Origin: an uncultured Lentisphaerota bacterium | GTDB lineage: Bacteria; Verrucomicrobiota; Kiritimatiellia; CAIQIC01 | Assembly: GCA_903912445.1 (NCBI GenBank) | Contig: CAIWHP010000191.1 | Location: forward strand, 262 to 64,261 | DNA: 64,000 nucleotides | Reading direction: 5' to 3' | In this document: positions 7,228 through 64,000 of the stretch, piece after piece | How the letters are laid out: each line of letters begins with the position of its first letter | Position numbering within the stretch: the first letter of the stretch is position 1 | Program-made: the position numbers and the translations under genes | The notes under the pieces: model-generated | Told to the model about the DNA's origin: nothing | Database searches by the model: none | Seen by the model: only the letters and a program-made list of their open reading frames with translations

Positions 7228-7275
7228 TTTCCAACCCTTGGAAAAAGCTTGTCGCGCGTTTCCAAGCCTTGGAAA
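7228..7275. promoter_or_regulatory. Two copies of the palindrome TTTCCAA-N3-TTGGAAA (7228-7244 TTTCCAACCCTTGGAAA; 7259-7275 TTTCCAAGCCTTGGAAA), with centres 31 bp apart, ending 10 nt before the ATG at 7285
   Basis: Read directly. Both copies are perfect 7-3-7 palindromes. Confidence 0.7.
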
Positions 7276-8963: not shown

Positions 8964-9647
8964 TCATCGACCTAGCAGGCGGTGCAGCACCTTACGCCAT
9001 AACGTGGGCCGCTCGCTCTTAACATAGGGCACCAGATCAGCCCTAAGTGATTTCTGCTTCACCGGCACACAGGTATAGGTTTTTAGATCGGGATGCTGCG
9101 GGGGTCCAGCATAAGGTTTTTTCGCAATCAACATGGAGTCCGCGCAGGTTTCGCTATACCAGCCGGCAGGGTTGCCGCCCGGCGCGCAATTCGTATGTGC
9201 GTGCAAGGTTTCGAAGCTGACGTATCGGGCCAACGCCACCATCCCATCGGAAAAAAACCGATAACAATCCACCGGATAGCGGTGCTCCCCAAACCCCTGG
9301 GGCGCGATCAAGCATAACAGCCCGTCCTTTTTCAGGACCCGCGCCATGTGCGTCATGGTAATCCAAAAAAACTCGATATGCTCAAAGGCTTGTCCTGATA
9401 TTACGATGTCAAATTGATCGGTCGCAATGTTGTCCCAGTCGTAAGGCTTCTCCAAAACTAGGTCAACATTGGGGCCTTTCTCCATGTCCAACCCTGTGTA
9501 TATGTATTTATTCCCAACAAACAGATGTTTGTATGAACCGTTCACGTCGTAACTGCCCACATCGAGCACCGTTACCGCGTCCTTGGCGATTTTGGAGGCG
9601 TATTGATCTATAAACCATTTCATTCTCAGGATGGAACTCTCATGCAT
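8964..9647 (-). CDS. Class I SAM-dependent methyltransferase. Its composition is atypical (AT-richer than the flanks).
   Basis: 'VLDVGSYDVNG' (motif I, GxGxG-like), 'FDIVISGQAFEHI' and 'LKKDGLLCLIAP' are typical Methyltransf_11/23 blocks. The gene is visibly lower in GC than its neighbours. Confidence 0.7.
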   Translation of the reverse strand: MHESSILRMKWFIDQYASKIAKDAVTVLDVGSYDVNGSYKHLFVGNKYIYTGLDMEKGPNVDLVLEKPYDWDNIATDQFDIVISGQAFEHIEFFWITMTHMARVLKKDGLLCLIAPQGFGEHRYPVDCYRFFSDGMVALARYVSFETLHAHTNCAPGGNPAGWYSETCADSMLIAKKPYAGPPQHPDLKTYTCVPVKQKSLRADLVPYVKSERPTLWRKVLHRLLGR

Positions 9648-13020: not shown

Positions 13021-13610
13021 AGGTGCCCGACATACTGACCCTGAGCCGCCTGGGGCTGGCTGCGATCCTGATCACCCTGCTGACGCTGGAATTCCCTTAT
13101 TCCAAAACGCTGGCCCTGCTCACCTTCCTGATCGCCAGCCTGACGGACTATCTCGATGGCGAGCTGGCGCGGCGCGTGTATGGGGTCAGCTCGTTCGGCA
13201 AGCTGATGGATCCGCTGACCGACAAGGTGCTCGTCTGCGCGGCCTTCGTGGCCTTCGTCGAGCTCAAGCTGGTGCCCGCGTGGCTCGTCGTGCTGATCAT
13301 CTCGCGCGAGTTTCTCGTCACCGGGCTGCGGCTGCTCGCGGCCAGCCGCGGGGAGATTGTCGGGGCGGGCTTCTGGGGCAAGCACAAGACCGTCACGCAG
13401 CTGCTGACGATCATCGTCCTGCTGGGCGGCCTGAGCTTCCGGGAGGACTTCAGCCCGCGCTTCACCGTCGAGCAGCTGGCCGCCTACAACAAGGTCCTGT
13501 CCATCACGTCCCTGTCGCTGATTTCCATCGTCGCCTTTATCACCGTGCTGTCCGGCGCGATCTATTTCTATCAGCATCGCAAGCTGCTGCTTTCCGAGGA
13601 CAAGGCGTGA
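13017..13610 (+). CDS. pgsA: CDP-diacylglycerol--glycerol-3-phosphate 3-phosphatidyltransferase
   Basis: CDP-alcohol phosphatidyltransferase motif 'DYLDGELARRV...GKLMDPLTDKV' (D-G-x2-A-R-x8-G-x3-D-x3-D). It has multiple TM helices and overlaps the upstream stop (ATGA). Confidence 0.85.
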   Translation: MKVPDILTLSRLGLAAILITLLTLEFPYSKTLALLTFLIASLTDYLDGELARRVYGVSSFGKLMDPLTDKVLVCAAFVAFVELKLVPAWLVVLIISREFLVTGLRLLAASRGEIVGAGFWGKHKTVTQLLTIIVLLGGLSFREDFSPRFTVEQLAAYNKVLSITSLSLISIVAFITVLSGAIYFYQHRKLLLSEDKA

Positions 13611-13662
13611 GGCCCGCCGTCCGCCGCTGCACCATGCACCATCTCCCCTCAACCATTTTTCT

Positions 13663-14232
13663 ATGAGCATCGAATGGAACATCCAAGCGCCCGCCTGCAC
13701 CTGCACGGCGTGCCAGAAAACGTTCAACGACGGCGATCAGCTGTGCTCGCTCCTGCAGTTCGGCGCCGAGGGCTACGCGCGCCACGACTATTGCACCGCC
13801 TGCTGGGCCGAGAAAGAGCGCGCCGGCGCCACCGGCGTCTGGCAGGGCGTCTTCCGTGCGCCGGCCCCGCCGCCGGATGAACCGCTGAAGAAGGAGACGG
13901 CCGAGTCGCTCCTGCGCCACATGATGGAGACCGAGGACGAAAAGCATGGCAACGCCATCTTCATCCTCGCCGTCATGCTCGAGCGCCGCCGCATCCTCGT
14001 CGAGCGCGACGTGCAGACGCGCGAGGACGGCGTAAAAATCCGTATCTACGAGCACAAGAAGACCAACGAAACCTTCATCATCCCGGACCCGGAGCTCAAG
14101 CTTGCCGAGTTGACGCACGTGCAGGAGGAGGTCGTCCTGCTCCTCGGCGGCACACCGCCGAAGAAAGCGGAAGCAAAAACAGAAGAGAAAACAGCCACGG
14201 ATGAACACGGATCAAACACGGATGGTGCTTGA
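13663..14232 (+). CDS. Hypothetical protein with an N-terminal Cys4 zinc-ribbon-like motif
   Basis: CTCTAC...CSLL...CTAC pattern near the N-terminus. The C-terminal end overlaps the left inverted repeat of the downstream GxxExxY element. Confidence 0.45.
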   Translation: MSIEWNIQAPACTCTACQKTFNDGDQLCSLLQFGAEGYARHDYCTACWAEKERAGATGVWQGVFRAPAPPPDEPLKKETAESLLRHMMETEDEKHGNAIFILAVMLERRRILVERDVQTREDGVKIRIYEHKKTNETFIIPDPELKLAELTHVQEEVVLLLGGTPPKKAEAKTEEKTATDEHGSNTDGA

Positions 14233-14622
14233 ACACTCCGCGATCACGGAGCAGATCATTGGCGCAGCGTTCGAGGTGTACCGTGTCCTCGGTTATGGAT
14301 TTCTTGAAAAGGTATATCAGCGTGCCATGCAGGTTGAGCTGCAACTGCGAGGGATGAAGGCCGAATTGGAACCGAAGCTGAAGGTGCAGTTCAAGGGCGT
14401 TGTTGTCGGCGATTATGCCGCCGACTTATTGGTGGAAGATGTCGTGATCGTCGAATTGAAAACAGTCCCTTCCTACAATCCTGCCGACGAAGCCCAATTG
14501 ATCAACGAGCTCAAAGGGACGGGTATTCGGGTCGGATTGCTTATCAATTTCGGCCGGCAAAAAGTTGAATTTGAACGGCGGGTTTTCTGATTCATCTTCT
14601 CCGTGTTTAATCCGTGTTCATC
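14201..14622. mobile_element. Small insertion: a GxxExxY-family gene bounded by 22-bp inverted repeats (GATGAACACGGATCAAACACGG ... CCGTGTTTAATCCGTGTTCATC), locally AT-rich
   Basis: Read directly: 14202-14223 and 14601-14622 are reverse complements of each other with one mismatch. The enclosed segment is AT-richer than the flanks. Confidence 0.55.
14222..14590 (+). CDS. GxxExxY family protein (PD-(D/E)xK-like)
   Basis: 'EHSAITEQIIGAAFEVYRVLGYGFLEKVYQRAMQVELQLRG' carries the eponymous G-x2-E-x2-Y signature, and the ~120-aa length is typical of the family. Confidence 0.7.
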   Translation: MVLEHSAITEQIIGAAFEVYRVLGYGFLEKVYQRAMQVELQLRGMKAELEPKLKVQFKGVVVGDYAADLLVEDVVIVELKTVPSYNPADEAQLINELKGTGIRVGLLINFGRQKVEFERRVF

Positions 14623-14632
14623 CGTGGCTAAA

Positions 14633-16186
14633 ATGTTCGATCTGATAATTACAAATGGTGAGGTTCATGACGGCAACGGCGGGCCGGCGCGGCGCGTCGA
14701 TGTGGCCGTGAACGGGGACCGCATCGCCGCGGTCGGCGAGCTCGCCGGCGCCGAGGCGCGCACGAGCATAGATGCCACCGGACGCATCGTCTGCCCCGGC
14801 TTCATCGATGTCCATTCGCACTCCGACACCTTCATCCTGATCGAGCCGACCGCGCCGAGCAAAATTTTCCAGGGCGTGACCACCGAGGTCGTCGGCAACT
14901 GCGGCGCCTCGACCGCGCCGCGGCAGGGCGCCTACAAGATGCCCACCGACTGGCGCGAGAAAAAGTATCCCGGCACGTGGAGCAGCGTGGCCGAGTACCG
15001 TGCGCTGCTGGCGCAGGTGCAGCCGGCGCTGAACATCGCCCTGCTGATCGGCCACAACAGCCTGCGCGCCGGCATCATCGGCTACGACGCCCGCGCGGCG
15101 ACCGCCGACGAAATCCGGGCGATGGCGGCGCTGCTCGCGCGCGCGCTCGACGAGGGCGGGGCGGGACTGAGCACCGGCCTGATCTATACGCCGGGCCTCT
15201 ACTCGACGCCGGAGGAAGTCCAGGCGCTGGCGGCCGTGGCGGCCCGGCACGGAAAAATTTATACGAGCCACATGCGCAGCGAGGGCGACCAGCTGCTCGA
15301 GGCGCTTGACGAGACGCTCGCCATCGGCCGCGCCACGGGCATCCGCGTGCAGGTGTCGCACCTGAAGACCGCCGGCCGCCGCAACTGGAAGAAAATTGAC
15401 GCCGCGCTGGAGAAGCTCCGTGCCGCGCAGGCCGCCGGCGTCCGCGTCGCCGCCGACCGCTATCCCTACACCGCGAGCTGCACCGACCTCGACGTCATCC
15501 TGCCCGACTGGGCCGCCGGCGGCGGGCGCGAGGCGGTGCTCGCGCGGCTGCGCGATCCCGCGACGCGGAAAAAGCTGCGCGACGAGCTGGTCAACGACAC
15601 CGACTGGGCCACGATCATGGTCGGCTCGATCTCGCGGCCGGAGCTGGCGCAGTTCCGCGGGCAGCGGCTGCCGGAGCTCGCCGCCGCGCTCGGCCTGGAG
15701 CCGGTGGACGCCGCGCTGCACCTGCTCGACGTGGATGAGCTCCGGCCGAGCGCGATCTTCTTCGGCATGTGCGAGGAAAACCTGTGGCGCATCTTCGCCG
15801 AGCCGTGGGTGATGGTCGGCTCCGACGCCTCGATCCGCGCGCTGACCGGCCCGCTCGCCGTCGATTTCCCGCATCCGCGCGCCTTCGGCACGTTCCCCCG
15901 GCTGCTGCGCGCCGCGCTCGACGGCCGGACCGTGCCGCTGCCGGAGATGATCCGCAAGATGACCAGCCTGGCGGCCGACCAGTTCCAGCTCAAGGACCGC
16001 GGCCGGCTCGCGCCCGGCGCCTTCGCCGATGTCGTCGTCTTCGACCCGCAGGCCATCCGCGACCTGGCGACCTTCGCCGAGCCGCGCCAGTATGCCGAGG
16101 GCATCGCGCACGTCATCGTCAACGGCCGCCCGGTCCTGCGCGACGGCGCCTTCACCGACATCCGCAGCGGCTGCTTCCTCGGCTGA
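14633..16186 (+). CDS. N-acyl-D-amino-acid deacylase (D-aminoacylase) family amidohydrolase
   Basis: Starts at MFDLIITNGEVHDG. 'PGFIDVHSHSD' metal-binding motif and 'TEVVGNCG' are typical of D-aminoacylase/amidohydrolase-3 proteins. Length 517 aa. Confidence 0.8.
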   Translation: MFDLIITNGEVHDGNGGPARRVDVAVNGDRIAAVGELAGAEARTSIDATGRIVCPGFIDVHSHSDTFILIEPTAPSKIFQGVTTEVVGNCGASTAPRQGAYKMPTDWREKKYPGTWSSVAEYRALLAQVQPALNIALLIGHNSLRAGIIGYDARAATADEIRAMAALLARALDEGGAGLSTGLIYTPGLYSTPEEVQALAAVAARHGKIYTSHMRSEGDQLLEALDETLAIGRATGIRVQVSHLKTAGRRNWKKIDAALEKLRAAQAAGVRVAADRYPYTASCTDLDVILPDWAAGGGREAVLARLRDPATRKKLRDELVNDTDWATIMVGSISRPELAQFRGQRLPELAAALGLEPVDAALHLLDVDELRPSAIFFGMCEENLWRIFAEPWVMVGSDASIRALTGPLAVDFPHPRAFGTFPRLLRAALDGRTVPLPEMIRKMTSLAADQFQLKDRGRLAPGAFADVVVFDPQAIRDLATFAEPRQYAEGIAHVIVNGRPVLRDGAFTDIRSGCFLG

Positions 16187-16266
16187 TTTCGAGACCTTGG
16201 AAAGTCCCGCCGCCGTTTTTCCAAGGCTTGGACGGAAGCAGCTCCCTGGTTTCCAAGCCTTGGAAA
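16187..16266. promoter_or_regulatory. Array of three TTTCCAA-N3-TTGGAAA-type palindromes (16187-16203 TTTCGAGACCTTGGAAA; 16218-16234 TTTCCAAGGCTTGGACG; 16250-16266 TTTCCAAGCCTTGGAAA), with centres ~31-32 bp apart, filling the 87-bp gap between two convergent genes
   Basis: Read directly. Positions were checked against ORF-track frames, which read the motifs as FFQGLD and SKPWKN in a spurious frame. Confidence 0.7.
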
Positions 16267-25748: not shown

Positions 25749-25765
25749 TGTCCAAGCCTTGGAAA
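25749..25765. promoter_or_regulatory. Single near-consensus palindrome TGTCCAAGCCTTGGAAA, ending ~15 nt before the start codon at 25780 and directly 5' of an AAGGA Shine-Dalgarno-like sequence
   Basis: Read directly. It has one mismatch in the left half-site. Confidence 0.55.
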
Positions 25766-44101: not shown

Positions 44102-44149
44102 TTTCCAAGGCTTGGGACTTTTCCGCTCACTGTTTCCAAGGCTTGGAAG
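44102..44149. promoter_or_regulatory. Two palindrome copies (44102-44118 TTTCCAAGGCTTGGGAC; 44133-44149 TTTCCAAGGCTTGGAAG), with centres 31 bp apart. The second ends 12 nt before the ATG at 44162 and directly 5' of AGGAG.
   Basis: Read directly and checked against the ORF-track frame 44099. Confidence 0.7.
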
Positions 44150-49557: not shown

Positions 49558-51360
49558 ATGAAATACACGCATCGCGTTTTTCCAATCATGGGAAGCCTGG
49601 GCCTGTTGTTTTTCCAAACATTGGAATCTGCAGCGCGGGCAGGCGCGGATGTGGAGGTGACCTGCATCTATACCAACGGGCGCGTCGAGAAGGCGCTGCT
49701 GCCGCTGGTGCAGGCCGGGACCGTGCAGCGGTTCCGCTGGGCGGCGGACAAGATCCCGGCCGGCGTCAGCCAAGTGGAAGTGCGGGCGGAGTTCGCGACC
49801 GCGAAAACCGGCGAAGACGGCTATTTCGTCATGCCGAACGGGTTCCTCGGCAGCTTCCGCGAGCGCGACGGCGAGCAGAAGCTGACGGCGAGTTATATGC
49901 CGATCTTCGGCATGAAGACGCCGCGGGCCGCCTTTGTCGCCATCGTCACCGGCCTGCCGCACGAATACACGCTGATCGCGCGCGCCAAGGCCGGCGCCTA
50001 CGCGTTCTATCCGCGTTTCGAACTGGGCGGGCGCAAGGCGAACGGCGACATTGCCATCGAGTATCATTTCCTGACGGGTGACGAGGCCGACTACTCGGGC
50101 ATGGCCAGGGCCTACCGCAAATTCCAGCTGGACCGCCAAGCCTGTGTACCCCTGAAGGAACGGATCAAGAGCCGTCCCGAGCTGGCCTATGCGCTGCAGT
50201 GCCCGGAGGTCCGCATCCGCATGGGCTGGAAGCCCGCGCCCAGCCCCGTGGAGGAGCAGACGCCCGCGACGGAGCCGCCAATGAAGGTGGCGGTCACGTT
50301 CGAGCGTGCCGGCGAGATTCTCGATGAGTGCAAGCGGCAGGGCATCGCGCGCGCGGAGTTCTGCCTCGTGGGCTGGAACCAGAAGGGACACGACGGCCGC
50401 TATCCACAACTGTTCCCGGTCGAGGAAGCGCTCGGCGGCGAAGCGCAGCTGCGCGCGTTGACTGCCAAGGCGCAGCAACTGGGCTACCAGCTCGTCTGCC
50501 ACAACAACCATTCCGACGCCTACCGTGTCGCCGACAGCTGGAACGAGGAGTTCGTCATCAAGAATCCGGCCGGCTCGCTCTCGACGAATGCGAGCTGGAG
50601 CGGCGGGCGGATGTATAACCTCTGTCCGCAGCGCGCCTACGAATGTTTCGCCCCGCAGGATCTGCGCGCCATCGCCGCGCTGGGCTTCCGCGGCGTGCAC
50701 TACATTGACGTGCTCTCCATCGTGCGGCCGCGCGCCTGCTACGATCCGCGCCATCCGCTTTCGCCCGACCAGTCGGCGGTGTGGATCAACAAAATCCTGC
50801 ACGAGGCCCGCGAGGTGTTCGGCGGCGTCTCCTCCGAGGGTGGGTTCGATTTCTGCTGCGGCAACCTGGACTACGCGCTCTACGTCTCCTTCGGGCACAT
50901 GACGAGCGTGCCCAAGCTGGTGGACCGCGTCGTGCCGCTCTGGCAGCTCGTCTATCACGGCATCATCATGAGCAACCCGTTCACCGACACGGCGAACTAC
51001 ACGCTCAAGGGCCCTGTCGCCCGGCTCAAGCTCGTCGAGTTCGGCGGCCGCCCGATGTTCTACTTCTATTCAAAATTCAAAGAGGACAACAAGCATTGGA
51101 TGGGCGCCGAGGACCTGACGTGCGCCGACCAGCCCGCGCTCGCCGCGAGCGTCGCGCAGATCAAGGCGGGTTACGACGAGTATGCCGCGCTGTGCCGCCT
51201 GCAGACCGAGTTCATGGACCGGCACGAGCTGCTCGCGCCCGAGGTCTCCCGCACCGCTTATTCCAGCGGGACGGCCATCATCTGCAACTACCGCGACAGC
51301 GACTTTGCTTATCGCGGCCAGCGGGTGCAGCCCCATGGGTACATCGTGGTGGAGCACTAG
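49558..51360 (+). CDS. Hypothetical secreted protein (600 aa) with the LFFQ-type leader. The palindrome pair (49579-49595, 49611-49627) lies inside codons 8-24.
   Basis: ATG with an upstream AAGGA. N-terminus MKYTHRVFPIMGSLGLLFFQTLESAARAGA. No recognisable catalytic motif. Confidence 0.5.
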   Translation: MKYTHRVFPIMGSLGLLFFQTLESAARAGADVEVTCIYTNGRVEKALLPLVQAGTVQRFRWAADKIPAGVSQVEVRAEFATAKTGEDGYFVMPNGFLGSFRERDGEQKLTASYMPIFGMKTPRAAFVAIVTGLPHEYTLIARAKAGAYAFYPRFELGGRKANGDIAIEYHFLTGDEADYSGMARAYRKFQLDRQACVPLKERIKSRPELAYALQCPEVRIRMGWKPAPSPVEEQTPATEPPMKVAVTFERAGEILDECKRQGIARAEFCLVGWNQKGHDGRYPQLFPVEEALGGEAQLRALTAKAQQLGYQLVCHNNHSDAYRVADSWNEEFVIKNPAGSLSTNASWSGGRMYNLCPQRAYECFAPQDLRAIAALGFRGVHYIDVLSIVRPRACYDPRHPLSPDQSAVWINKILHEAREVFGGVSSEGGFDFCCGNLDYALYVSFGHMTSVPKLVDRVVPLWQLVYHGIIMSNPFTDTANYTLKGPVARLKLVEFGGRPMFYFYSKFKEDNKHWMGAEDLTCADQPALAASVAQIKAGYDEYAALCRLQTEFMDRHELLAPEVSRTAYSSGTAIICNYRDSDFAYRGQRVQPHGYIVVEH

Positions 51361-62634: not shown

Positions 62635-64000
62635 ATGAAACACATTTCGCTTTGGAATATTCCAAGGCTTGGAACTCTCTGCCTGCTGTTTTTCCAAGGG
62701 TTGGAAACGCAGGCGGCAGGCGGGTTGCAAGGTGCACGCGGTGTGCTCACCGTGGACGCGCAGGGCATCAGCCTCGCACCGGCCTCCGCGACTTGCCCGA
62801 CGATCACGGCGCGGGGCGAGCCGATGTGGGCGGTGCTGATGCAGTCGGATACGCCGCCGCCGGTCGCCGGCGCGCCCGTCGTGCTCGGCGACAAGGGCCA
62901 GCAGCCCCAGCGCGAGGTCACCGCCGACGGCATCCGGCTGACCTACGCAAGTCTCACGGACGGCAAGCGCACGTGGCGTGTCGGGGTGACGCTCGATTTC
63001 CACCGCAAGGGCGACGCGTTCGAGGTGACCGGCGAGGTCCGCAACGACGAGCCGGGCTGGCTCATGTGCGGCTTCACCGGCCCGGTATTGCACGGCATCC
63101 GCGCCGATCTCGCGACGCATCCGGCGCTGTTGCCCGATGGTCTGGGCCGCATCATCCACCGGATGCCCGATGACAAGAAAGGCAGCAACGAGGTCGGCGT
63201 TGTATATCCGAGCCGCAAAGGGACGATGCAGTGGTGCACTCTTTCCGGCGCGCAGGGCGGGCTCTACTTCGGTTGCCACGACGCCACGCATGGCGCGAAA
63301 ACGATTTGCGTGCGGCGCGATGCCGCCAGCCAGACCTATGGACTCGCGGTGAAGCATCAGGCGTTTTGCGCGGTGGGTCAGCGCTGGGCGTTGCCGCCGA
63401 CGGTCATCATGCCCTACGCGGGCTCGTGGCACACCGCCGCCCGCTATTACCGGGCGTGGAGCGAAAGCATCGAGCCGCCGCTCGCCGTGCCGGAGTGGGC
63501 GCGCAACGCCTCCGGCTGGCTGCTCTGTATCCTGAAACAGCAGAATGGCGAGGTGCATTGGGATTATTCCTCGCTCGGCAAATTGTGCGACGTGGCCGAT
63601 GCGCGCGGGCTCGACATCCTCGGCCTGTTTGGCTGGGCGCACGGCGGGCACGATCATCTCTATCCTGAATATTTCTCCGACCCTAAGATGGGTGGCGAGG
63701 AGGCGCTGCGCAAGGCGCTGCGTGACATCCGGCAGCGCGGCAAACGCTCCATCCTCTATGCCAACGGCCAGCTCATCGAACAGGGCACGGAATTTTGGAG
63801 CAAGGAAGGCCAGGCGCTGGCGGTGCTGAAAAAGGACGGCACGCCCGTACAGCAGACCTATCACAAGTACCGCACGACCGCGCCGTTTCGCTTCGGCCTC
63901 GGCTGCCTGGTCGCGCCGGCGTGGTTCGACCGCATGCTCGCGCTCGCGGTGCAGGCCCACGCGCTCGGCGCGGACGGCATCCTCTATGACCAGCTTGGCG
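62635..64000 (+). CDS. Secreted hypothetical protein (partial; runs off the window end) with the LFFQ-type leader. The palindrome pair (62659-62675, 62691-62707) lies inside codons 9-25.
   Basis: ATG at 62635, preceded by AAAGG. Translating it by hand gives no stop up to position 64000. The ORF track omits it, presumably because no stop falls inside the window. N-terminus MKHISLWNIPRLGTLCLLFFQGLETQAAGG. The body is TIM-barrel-like (GWAHGGHDHLYPEYF). Confidence 0.55.
   Translation, partial: MKHISLWNIPRLGTLCLLFFQGLETQAAGGLQGARGVLTVDAQGISLAPASATCPTITARGEPMWAVLMQSDTPPPVAGAPVVLGDKGQQPQREVTADGIRLTYASLTDGKRTWRVGVTLDFHRKGDAFEVTGEVRNDEPGWLMCGFTGPVLHGIRADLATHPALLPDGLGRIIHRMPDDKKGSNEVGVVYPSRKGTMQWCTLSGAQGGLYFGCHDATHGAKTICVRRDAASQTYGLAVKHQAFCAVGQRWALPPTVIMPYAGSWHTAARYYRAWSESIEPPLAVPEWARNASGWLLCILKQQNGEVHWDYSSLGKLCDVADARGLDILGLFGWAHGGHDHLYPEYFSDPKMGGEEALRKALRDIRQRGKRSILYANGQLIEQGTEFWSKEGQALAVLKKDGTPVQQTYHKYRTTAPFRFGLGCLVAPAWFDRMLALAVQAHALGADGILYDQLG

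Follow-up and report, generated by a model that had tools for sequence, protein, structure and literature searches.

How a small gene of the GxxExxY family comes to lie between two inverted repeats is the question raised by a 64,000-nucleotide stretch of DNA from an uncultured Lentisphaerota bacterium (contig CAIWHP010000191.1, positions 262 to 64,261; hereafter "the window"). The repeats might be the ends of a mobile unit, signals that act in RNA, or parts of the neighboring genes. An original prediction, made from the sequence, took gene and repeats together for an AT-rich insertion and for a tiny mobile unit resembling a miniature inverted-repeat transposable element (MITE). As shown below, the repeats delimit a discrete unit that also occurs elsewhere, and the copy found in the window has resided at its site for a long time. 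The explanation that we favor, with about even confidence, is that the feature is a modular selfish element in which a PD-(D/E)xK nuclease gene (GxxExxY) lies in the loop of a palindromic repeat of its own.

The two arms of the repeat, AGCCACGGATGAACACGGATCAAACACGGA on the left and TCCGTGTTTAATCCGTGTTCATCCGTGGCT on the right, are 30 nt long, complementary at 29 of their 30 positions and separated by 377 nt (Table 1). A repeat of 22 bp with one mismatch had been predicted: the repeat is real, but the predicted arms were too short, and their coordinates were exact on the right side but off by 2 nt on the left, where the 22-mer spans 14200-14221. No second arm pair was found within the 64-kb window, where, of all pairs spaced by no more than 2.5 kb, this repeat alone exceeds 87% complementarity. 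A 17-mer of the arm matches the two arm positions only, while 0.16 matches are expected from shuffled sequences, and we estimate the chance of a 30-nt repeat with one mismatch to be of the order of 1e-7 per window. Chance or artefact as the origin of the repeat is ruled out by the shuffles and by the window-wide repeat scan. The GxxExxY unit of the window was also found on two independent metagenome contigs.

Each arm is built from three 7-nt boxes. The boxes of the left arm follow each other at intervals of 10 and 11 nt, about one helical turn, and the last of them overlaps the start codon of the GxxExxY gene. The left arm also encodes the 13 C-terminal residues (..TATDEHGSNTDGA, followed by the stop) of the upstream open reading frame (ORF), in agreement with the prediction that the repeat would overlap the last codons of that gene. 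The stop codon of the upstream ORF lies 8 nt past the GxxExxY start, so that the reading frames overlap. On the other side, the right arm begins 9 nt past the GxxExxY stop and finishes 3 nt ahead of the start codon of an amidohydrolase gene, the predicted D-aminoacylase.

Are such arms a general companion of GxxExxY genes? We picked 80 metagenome loci by protein similarity alone (60-74% identity), and most of them have box-type inverted arms. Many of these loci are mutually orthologous, and the units with usable flanks were therefore clustered into 36 site groups; earlier statistics on 78 protein-selected loci had counted orthologous sites as independent, and the clustered results hold but are weaker. 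An inverted-repeat score of 14 or higher was obtained for the flanks of 27 of the 36 site groups, while for unrelated flanks, used as control, the mean was 7.8 and the 95th percentile 9.5. In most of the other groups the box-type repeats are weaker, and in about three they are missing. Hence, the expectation that other GxxExxY genes are flanked by similar inverted repeats is borne out at 27 or more independent site groups, and the opposite outcome, copies generally devoid of flanking repeats, was not encountered. The distance from the stop codon to the first right box is 0-1 nt in 34 of 77 units and 12 nt or less in 65 of them.

More distant homologues (37-47% identity) have analogous three-box arms with different box sequences. 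The boxes are ACGGAAT and ACCGGAT/ACCAGAT on IMG/VR contigs, with a weaker CGCAGAA at one locus, and CACAGAG in a plasmid record of Bacteroides finegoldii. Peptides that result from read-through in representatives of the 50%-identity clusters (NTDEHG, IRVHPWL, ICVHLWL) agree with the arm-flanked design. The whole GxxExxY / PDDEXK_3 family comprises 15,088 clusters at 50% identity (E <= 0.001). We found no literature on the arms or on the genomic behavior of GxxExxY genes, although the curators of the family may have noted the repeats informally. An exception to the inverted-arm rule is a Fusobacteria plasmid (CP102406, positions 1075-1700), where the GxxExxY gene is flanked by a direct repeat of about 22 nt (CAGATTTAATCCGTGTACCTAT) that includes one ATCCGTG box. 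Many proteins of 250-295 aa (P0242, P0244 and P0247 among others) hold two tandem GxxExxY domains and are presumably fused adjacent units.

The limits of the unit were defined by comparing copies located at unrelated loci. The units of L153/L155 and L158 match at 95-96% identity over about 455 nt, while the sequences around them are unrelated. The match sets in exactly at GCCAC.., where the left arm has its outer end, and extends about 11 nt beyond the right arm's ..GTGGC. Because the similarity of units at unrelated loci starts and ends at the arms, the arms bound the transferable entity, and the repeats are thereby shown to be the ends of a discrete unit that occurs elsewhere.

The same arms are also widespread without the gene. 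An exact scan with CACGGATNAACACGGATNAANCACGG, using one genome per species, retrieved at least 120 stretches. Among the matches listed, the records are labelled Verrucomicrobiota, Planctomycetota, Gallionellaceae/Sideroxydans, Acidobacteria, Omnitrophota, Lentisphaerae and others; nearly all matches are one half of an inverted pair; the inter-arm distances fall into classes of 4-66, 81-108 and 377-452 nt; every insert of 377-452 nt is a GxxExxY gene, intact or decayed, and no other protein cargo was seen between arms. About 70 arm pairs are gene-less, with loops of 4-108 nt, and make up dispersed hairpin doublets. The loops of 81-108 nt are conserved in sequence within a lineage, as exemplified by a loop of about 88 nt present at six or more loci of one Chthoniobacter metagenome-assembled genome (MAG). 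Several other MAGs have at least 3-6 arm loci each, while the 64-kb window has one pair. The lineage-specific loops (about 88, 97 and 66 nt) contain no detectable GxxExxY coding remnant, and the idea that short hairpins are deletion derivatives of the gene holds for L203, L207, L096 and L084 only. The exact arm sequences gave nothing in a literature search.

Known structures were considered as identities for the hairpins. A known RNA family was rejected, as Rfam gave no match, whether the region around the unit was searched by E-value or seven hairpin loci at gathering thresholds. An intrinsic terminator was also rejected: the TTTT..AAAA flanks of the hairpins have the wrong polarity on both strands, and the only terminator-like site that coincides with the arms is a trivial one of 5 bp. 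Tandem arrays of whole hairpins are found in L029 (1703-4004) and L108 (1662-2337), with periods of roughly 190 and 135 nt; among these loci and L039 (136-234) and L092 (4756-5465) there are also a 100-nt run of a 10-nt box unit and a GxxExxY gene with three arms per side. These arrangements point to local amplification of the repeat.

The history of the unit in the window was reconstructed with the amidohydrolase gene as anchor for comparing orthologous sites. The gene order FtsK, HTH_25, CDP-alcohol phosphatidyltransferase, an ORF of about 190 aa, a variable interval and the amidohydrolase is conserved in relatives, and the content of the variable interval differs among them (Table 1). The nearest relatives of the GxxExxY protein of the window all occupy this site, and the unit is present with the same junctions where the amidohydrolase of the relatives is only 82-90% identical. 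Divergence of the GxxExxY gene grows with that of its neighbors, with pN of 0.06-0.16, pS of 0.52-0.81 and pN/pS of about 0.12-0.2. These observations show that the unit is an old resident, vertically inherited under purifying selection. The arms are under constraint too, since over the same span the non-coding right arm keeps 22-29 of its 30 bases, while the synonymous sites of the neighbors differ by 25-58%; in the wider comparison, the synonymous-site differences against which arm conservation is set are 0.25-0.81.

The low GC content of the ORF had been read as a sign of insertion. The difference itself is clear: GC is 0.48-0.53 inside the unit (about 0.50), 0.65 in the window and 0.64-0.74 in the neighboring genes. 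However, low GC does not speak for a recent arrival, given that unit and neighbors have diverged together, and a recent insertion is rejected for the same reason and because orthologous relatives share both the unit and its junctions. At third codon positions, GC (GC3) is 0.61 in the GxxExxY gene versus 0.92 in the amidohydrolase gene. Composition has not ameliorated, although residence has been long enough to saturate synonymous sites. A constraint on nucleotide sequence or repeated replacement by outside copies are possible causes of the lagging GC3.

Residence has not been uneventful. In the relatives the unit has undergone internal deletion, loss, replacement by small genes and, in one case, re-acquisition beside a degenerate remnant. 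The deletions of L203 and L207 are independent, as they belong to different sub-lineages. In L204 the site has neither arms nor gene; this is the empty site in a related genome that the prediction called for, and the repeats are accordingly not a part of conserved neighboring genes. The re-acquisition is found in L001. Between this locus and the window the host genes on both sides of the unit are 87-93% identical, and the nearly identical tract between them (Table 1) marks a recently exchanged segment bounded by the arms. The amidohydrolase of L001 is closest to that of L203, the lineage with the deleted remnant, and that remnant, made of the left arm and 17 codons, lies in L001 immediately upstream of an intact unit of the window type. 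Because the remnant adjoins a 98.6%-identical unit in a background that is 90% identical, a unit of another lineage must have re-invaded the degenerate site, and the crossover on the right side lay at the right arm or just past it. The site between the ORF of about 190 aa and the amidohydrolase gene is a hot spot for small cargo genes, among them a DUF433 + DUF5615 pair that we take to be toxin-antitoxin-like.

The gene between the arms belongs to the GxxExxY family, as had been proposed, with 131.1 bits against the TIGR04256 profile (cutoff 35) and 129.7 bits against PF13366, PDDEXK_3 (cutoff 22). An alternative ATG exists at 14201, from which the arm would be translated as MNTDQTR. The residues of the E...D...ExK motif (E18, D68, E78 and K80) are invariant in 59 homologues. 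An AF2 model of the protein has a pLDDT of 95.5 and the order alpha-alpha-beta4-alpha-beta2, and the best Foldseek matches are PD-(D/E)xK proteins (Cas4 SSO0001, 3ijm, lambda-type exonucleases and Hjc), all of them weak, with TM values of 0.4-0.57. No solved structure was detectable by sequence. Identity as a defense-system or phage protein was dropped, as neither PADLOC nor PHROG gave a match. The window contains no second GxxExxY gene, and no sigma-70-like promoter was found in 13500-15000.

Altogether, these data lead us to propose that the unit is a module whose nuclease acts on its own arms, in a manner similar either to homing endonucleases or to the pairs formed by REPINs (doublets of repetitive extragenic palindromic, REP, sequences) and RAYTs (REP-associated tyrosine transposases). 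We would place this proposal at even odds. The nuclease would bind the boxes, six sites per unit and probably as an oligomer, and would cut at or near such palindromes. Gene-bearing and gene-less versions might then be copied by recombination or repair, with the arms serving as homology, so that the life style would be homing-endonuclease-like or REPIN/RAYT-like and would not involve cut-and-paste transposition. As no recognizable promoter is present, the unit is probably expressed by read-through from the host operon, and the arm stem formed in the transcript over the start codon would hold expression of the nuclease low. The preferred position of the units behind a host gene of like orientation, the fold of the arms in RNA and the conservation of the arms in place, all described below or above, also count in favor of the module.

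Several points speak against such a module. Nuclease activity and arm binding or cutting by GxxExxY are predictions from sequence, and no solved or characterized close relative of the protein was found. Long vertical persistence and purifying selection would be equally expected of a domesticated host gene. With no other arm in 64 kb, the repeat may not be proliferating in this genome. Most gene-less hairpins are devoid of any trace of the gene, and their dispersal is therefore not explained by homology-dependent copying alone. The association between protein clade and box type is only modest (20 of 25 versus 15.9 expected, with orthologous sites collapsed). Lastly, at spacer positions the left and right arms of one unit resemble each other somewhat more than random arms do, and there may be some selection for arm pairing.

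Most arm positions are near-invariant, and variation is found chiefly as G/A in the boxes and at the spacer bases. The six boxes of one unit tend to have a common G or A variant, with phi values of 0.45-0.51 for pairing partners and 0.30-0.63 for non-partners. Arm changes at orthologous loci are mostly uncompensated, and L218 has accumulated 5 mismatches. Since the correlation between partners is not above that between non-partners and the changes are uncompensated, six equivalent recognition sites fit the data better than base-pair compensation. Some covariation of the arms exists: left and right arms associate at spacer positions 10 and 20 and also at the G/A positions of the boxes, there without specificity for pairing partners.

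These patterns bear on an RNA-level device, in which the arm stem would insulate the ORF from the operon (by excision of the RNase III type, known from rRNA intervening sequences) or occlude the start codon, and the repeats would be kept for pairing. In the minimum-free-energy fold the arms close a 29-bp stem over the whole ORF, with a z-score of -5.2, and the inner end of this stem is where the start codon is located. The conservation in place of the non-coding right arm and the modest left/right association at spacer positions are also in line with such a device, and so is the orientation of the units with respect to host genes: by counts that rest on crude ORF calling, the upstream neighbor has the orientation of the unit in 29 of 34 site groups (p = 4e-5), and in 20 of 34 both neighbors do. 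Yet the box variant is common to non-pairing boxes as strongly as to pairing boxes, compensation is scarce, the lack of a match in Rfam does not help, and the 30-nt sequence itself is kept across phyla, more than pairing alone requires. As the explanation of the repeats we consider an RNA-level device unlikely; it is, in any case, compatible with the selfish module proposed above and not exclusive of it.

The proposal that the unit is a classical terminal-inverted-repeat element or MITE deserves separate consideration. The arms would be recognized by a transposase encoded elsewhere, GxxExxY would be a passenger, and the gene-less hairpins would be ordinary MITEs. Terminal inverted repeats, many short gene-less copies and loop families that differ by lineage, as MITE families do, are features that a MITE would explain, and a PD-(D/E)xK protein of 122 aa is unlikely to be a complete transposase on its own. 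However, target-site duplications, which the prediction had named as a feature to check, were not found: direct repeats in the flanks of 297 arm pairs equal those of the shuffled control, none exists at the L153/L158 junctions, and the only preference detected in the flanks of arm pairs is palindromic (TTTA/GCC..GGC/TAAA, with slashes at the arm ends). Because target-site duplications are missing, a cut-and-paste mechanism of the DDE or transposase type is not indicated. Furthermore, GxxExxY is the sole protein cargo seen, no transposase gene lies between such arms in about 200 loci, and the base-to-base junction of arms and gene is unexpected for a random passenger. We therefore hold a MITE to be improbable. 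From the original prediction of a tiny mobile MITE-like unit, what stands is that the unit is discrete and that gene-less hairpins with the same arms are common; the likeness to a MITE fails at the target site, and a unit that encodes a protein is not a MITE by definition.

A domesticated host gene, that is, a conserved cellular nuclease whose repeats are relics or operator-like sites without present selfish activity, would account for co-divergence with the neighbors at a pN/pS of 0.12-0.2, for the same junctions in lineages with neighbors 82-90% identical and for the single arm pair in 64 kb, but has a slim chance in view of the independent deletions (L203, L207), the empty site (L204), the other cargo (L206), the recent horizontal re-acquisition confined to the unit (L001), the identical architecture at about 30 unrelated sites and in several phyla, and a GC3 that remains so far below that of the neighboring gene despite long residence.

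How does the selfish module that we favor relate to known systems? The closest analogue is the REPIN-RAYT system, made of REP doublets and their associated tyrosine transposase (Bertels and Rainey 2011, PMC3116915, PMC3337134). Both systems have short palindromic repeats in inverted doublets that form hairpins scattered through intergenic DNA; in both, the repeats flank the enzyme gene, the system persists vertically over long times under purifying selection, and target-site duplications are missing. They differ in several respects. The flanked gene encodes here a 122-aa PD-(D/E)xK nuclease, whereas RAYTs are HUH/Y1 transposases; the GxxExxY arms are three tandem 7-nt boxes that start (T)TTTAGCCACGG, without a GTAG/CGTC tag; the GxxExxY gene lies inside the doublet, base-to-base with the arms; and the arm sequence of GxxExxY units is shared across phyla. 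In addition, the GxxExxY family is reported to reach many copies per genome, while RAYTs are single-copy. The unit does not qualify as a REPIN-RAYT system, since its enzyme is no HUH transposase and its repeat is built differently.

Other comparisons are partial. MITEs such as Correia elements and Stowaway-like elements resemble the units in their terminal inverted repeats, small size, intergenic location and gene-less families with lineage-specific interiors; the GxxExxY unit differs in that it codes for a protein and lacks both a target-site duplication and any transposase-bearing parent element that we could see. Homing endonuclease genes may be free-standing or intron-borne, and those of PD-(D/E)xK type include I-Ssp6803I. 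They have in common with GxxExxY a small nuclease gene, presence or absence at a fixed site, decay by deletion and re-invasion into a diverged background, a likeness that concerns site history. In contrast, the GxxExxY unit lies outside any intron or intein, is located in a multi-copy palindrome instead of a unique gene target, and co-diverges vertically over a long time. The ORF-bearing intervening sequences of 23S rRNA also contain a small ORF of a large, scattered paralogous family inside inverted repeats with a long transcript stem; however, the host of GxxExxY is a protein-coding operon, the ORF family is a different one, and RNase III processing is hypothetical here. The organization of an integron cassette, with a single attC of GTTRRRY core 3' of a promoterless ORF, was not found: the unit has repeats at both ends, with junctions AGCCACGG and CCGTGGCT.

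On a broader scale we put forward, tentatively and with less than even confidence, that the GxxExxY family, with its about 15,000 clusters at 50% identity, supplies the enzymes of unrecognized, phylum-spanning palindromic mobile elements. Their nuclease would recognize arrays of the 7-nt box and drive the copying, free of target-site duplication, of the gene-bearing palindrome and of gene-less hairpins, in a homing-like cycle of decay and re-invasion; the system would be a nuclease-based counterpart of REPIN-RAYT. For GxxExxY / PDDEXK_3, a very large family without known function, a concrete and testable hypothesis of its role follows from the base-to-base nesting of its members between inverted box arrays, from the transfer of gene and arms as one unit and from the gene-less versions in several phyla. 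The arm units also explain a class of intergenic palindromes in MAGs of the Planctomycetes-Verrucomicrobia-Chlamydiae (PVC) group, acidobacteria and iron oxidizers, and account for spurious annotated peptides that recur (NTDEHG.., IRVHPWL..). If the nuclease does recognize the boxes, it would be a compact DNA recognizer, programmable-looking because lineages differ in their boxes, and a second, mechanistically different case of long-lived intragenomic replicators would be at hand.

Table 1. Coordinates of the unit, its neighbors, orthologous sites and related repeats. "Site" is the interval between the ORF of about 190 aa and the amidohydrolase gene; L numbers designate loci.
Feature	Locus	Positions	Strand	Description
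Upstream host ORF	window	13663..14232	+	189 aa; orthologues in L203-L210, L218-L219
Left arm	window	14193..14222	+	AGC, then three CACGGAT boxes at 14196-14202, 14206-14212 and 14217-14223
GxxExxY / PDDEXK_3 gene	window	14222..14590	+	122 aa plus stop; JGI gene call also starts at 14222
Right arm	window	14600..14629	-	Reverse complement of left arm, 1 mismatch; non-coding; ATCCGTG boxes at 14620-14626 and 14610-14616, imperfect CTCCGTG at 14599-14605
Downstream host gene	window	14633..16186	+	Amidohydrolase / N-acyl-D-amino-acid deacylase-like, 517 aa
Exchanged tract	window	14168..14637	.	98.6% identical to metagenome contig L001 (6 mismatches); runs 25 nt past the left arm and 8 nt past the right arm
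Site, intact unit	window, L001/L002, L219, L218, L064, L210, L209			Same junctions
Site, deleted unit	L203, L207			Left arm, about 20 codons, right-arm remnant
Site, empty	L204/L205			Neither arms nor gene; 107 nt of another repeat
Site, other cargo	L206	2727-2997		Unrelated 89-aa ORF without Pfam match
Site, other cargo	contig of ERZ1426827			DUF433 + DUF5615 pair
Gene-less hairpins	L004, L036, L045, L051, L074, L107, L110			Lineage-specific loops; Chthoniobacter and relatives
Gene-less hairpins	L024, L043, L071, L078, L083, L121			Lineage-specific loops; Planctomycetaceae
Gene-less hairpins	L005, L033, L100			Lineage-specific loops; Sideroxydans
Second palindromic repeat	window	7229-7274, 16188-16265, 25750-25764, 44103-44148, 49580-49626, 62660-62706		TTCCAAGGCTTGGAA
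Second palindromic repeat	L204	2900-2960		TTCCAAGGCTTGGAA

Regarding the surroundings of the unit, neither Pfam nor NCBIfam gave a match for the upstream ORF. Just upstream of the FtsK gene there is an ORF of 227 aa with low GC (8964-9647, minus strand, about 0.45-0.51 GC); it has a weak match of 27 bits to Methyltransf_11, a SAM-methyltransferase family, and may be another acquired gene. The window also harbors a second palindromic repeat, TTCCAAGGCTTGGAA, which is unrelated to the arms and has 26 matches versus 1.1 expected. Most of its sites have two or three copies about 31 nt apart, read as FQGLE/SKPWK in spurious ORFs. At the empty orthologous site in L204, this second repeat takes the place that the GxxExxY unit has in the window.

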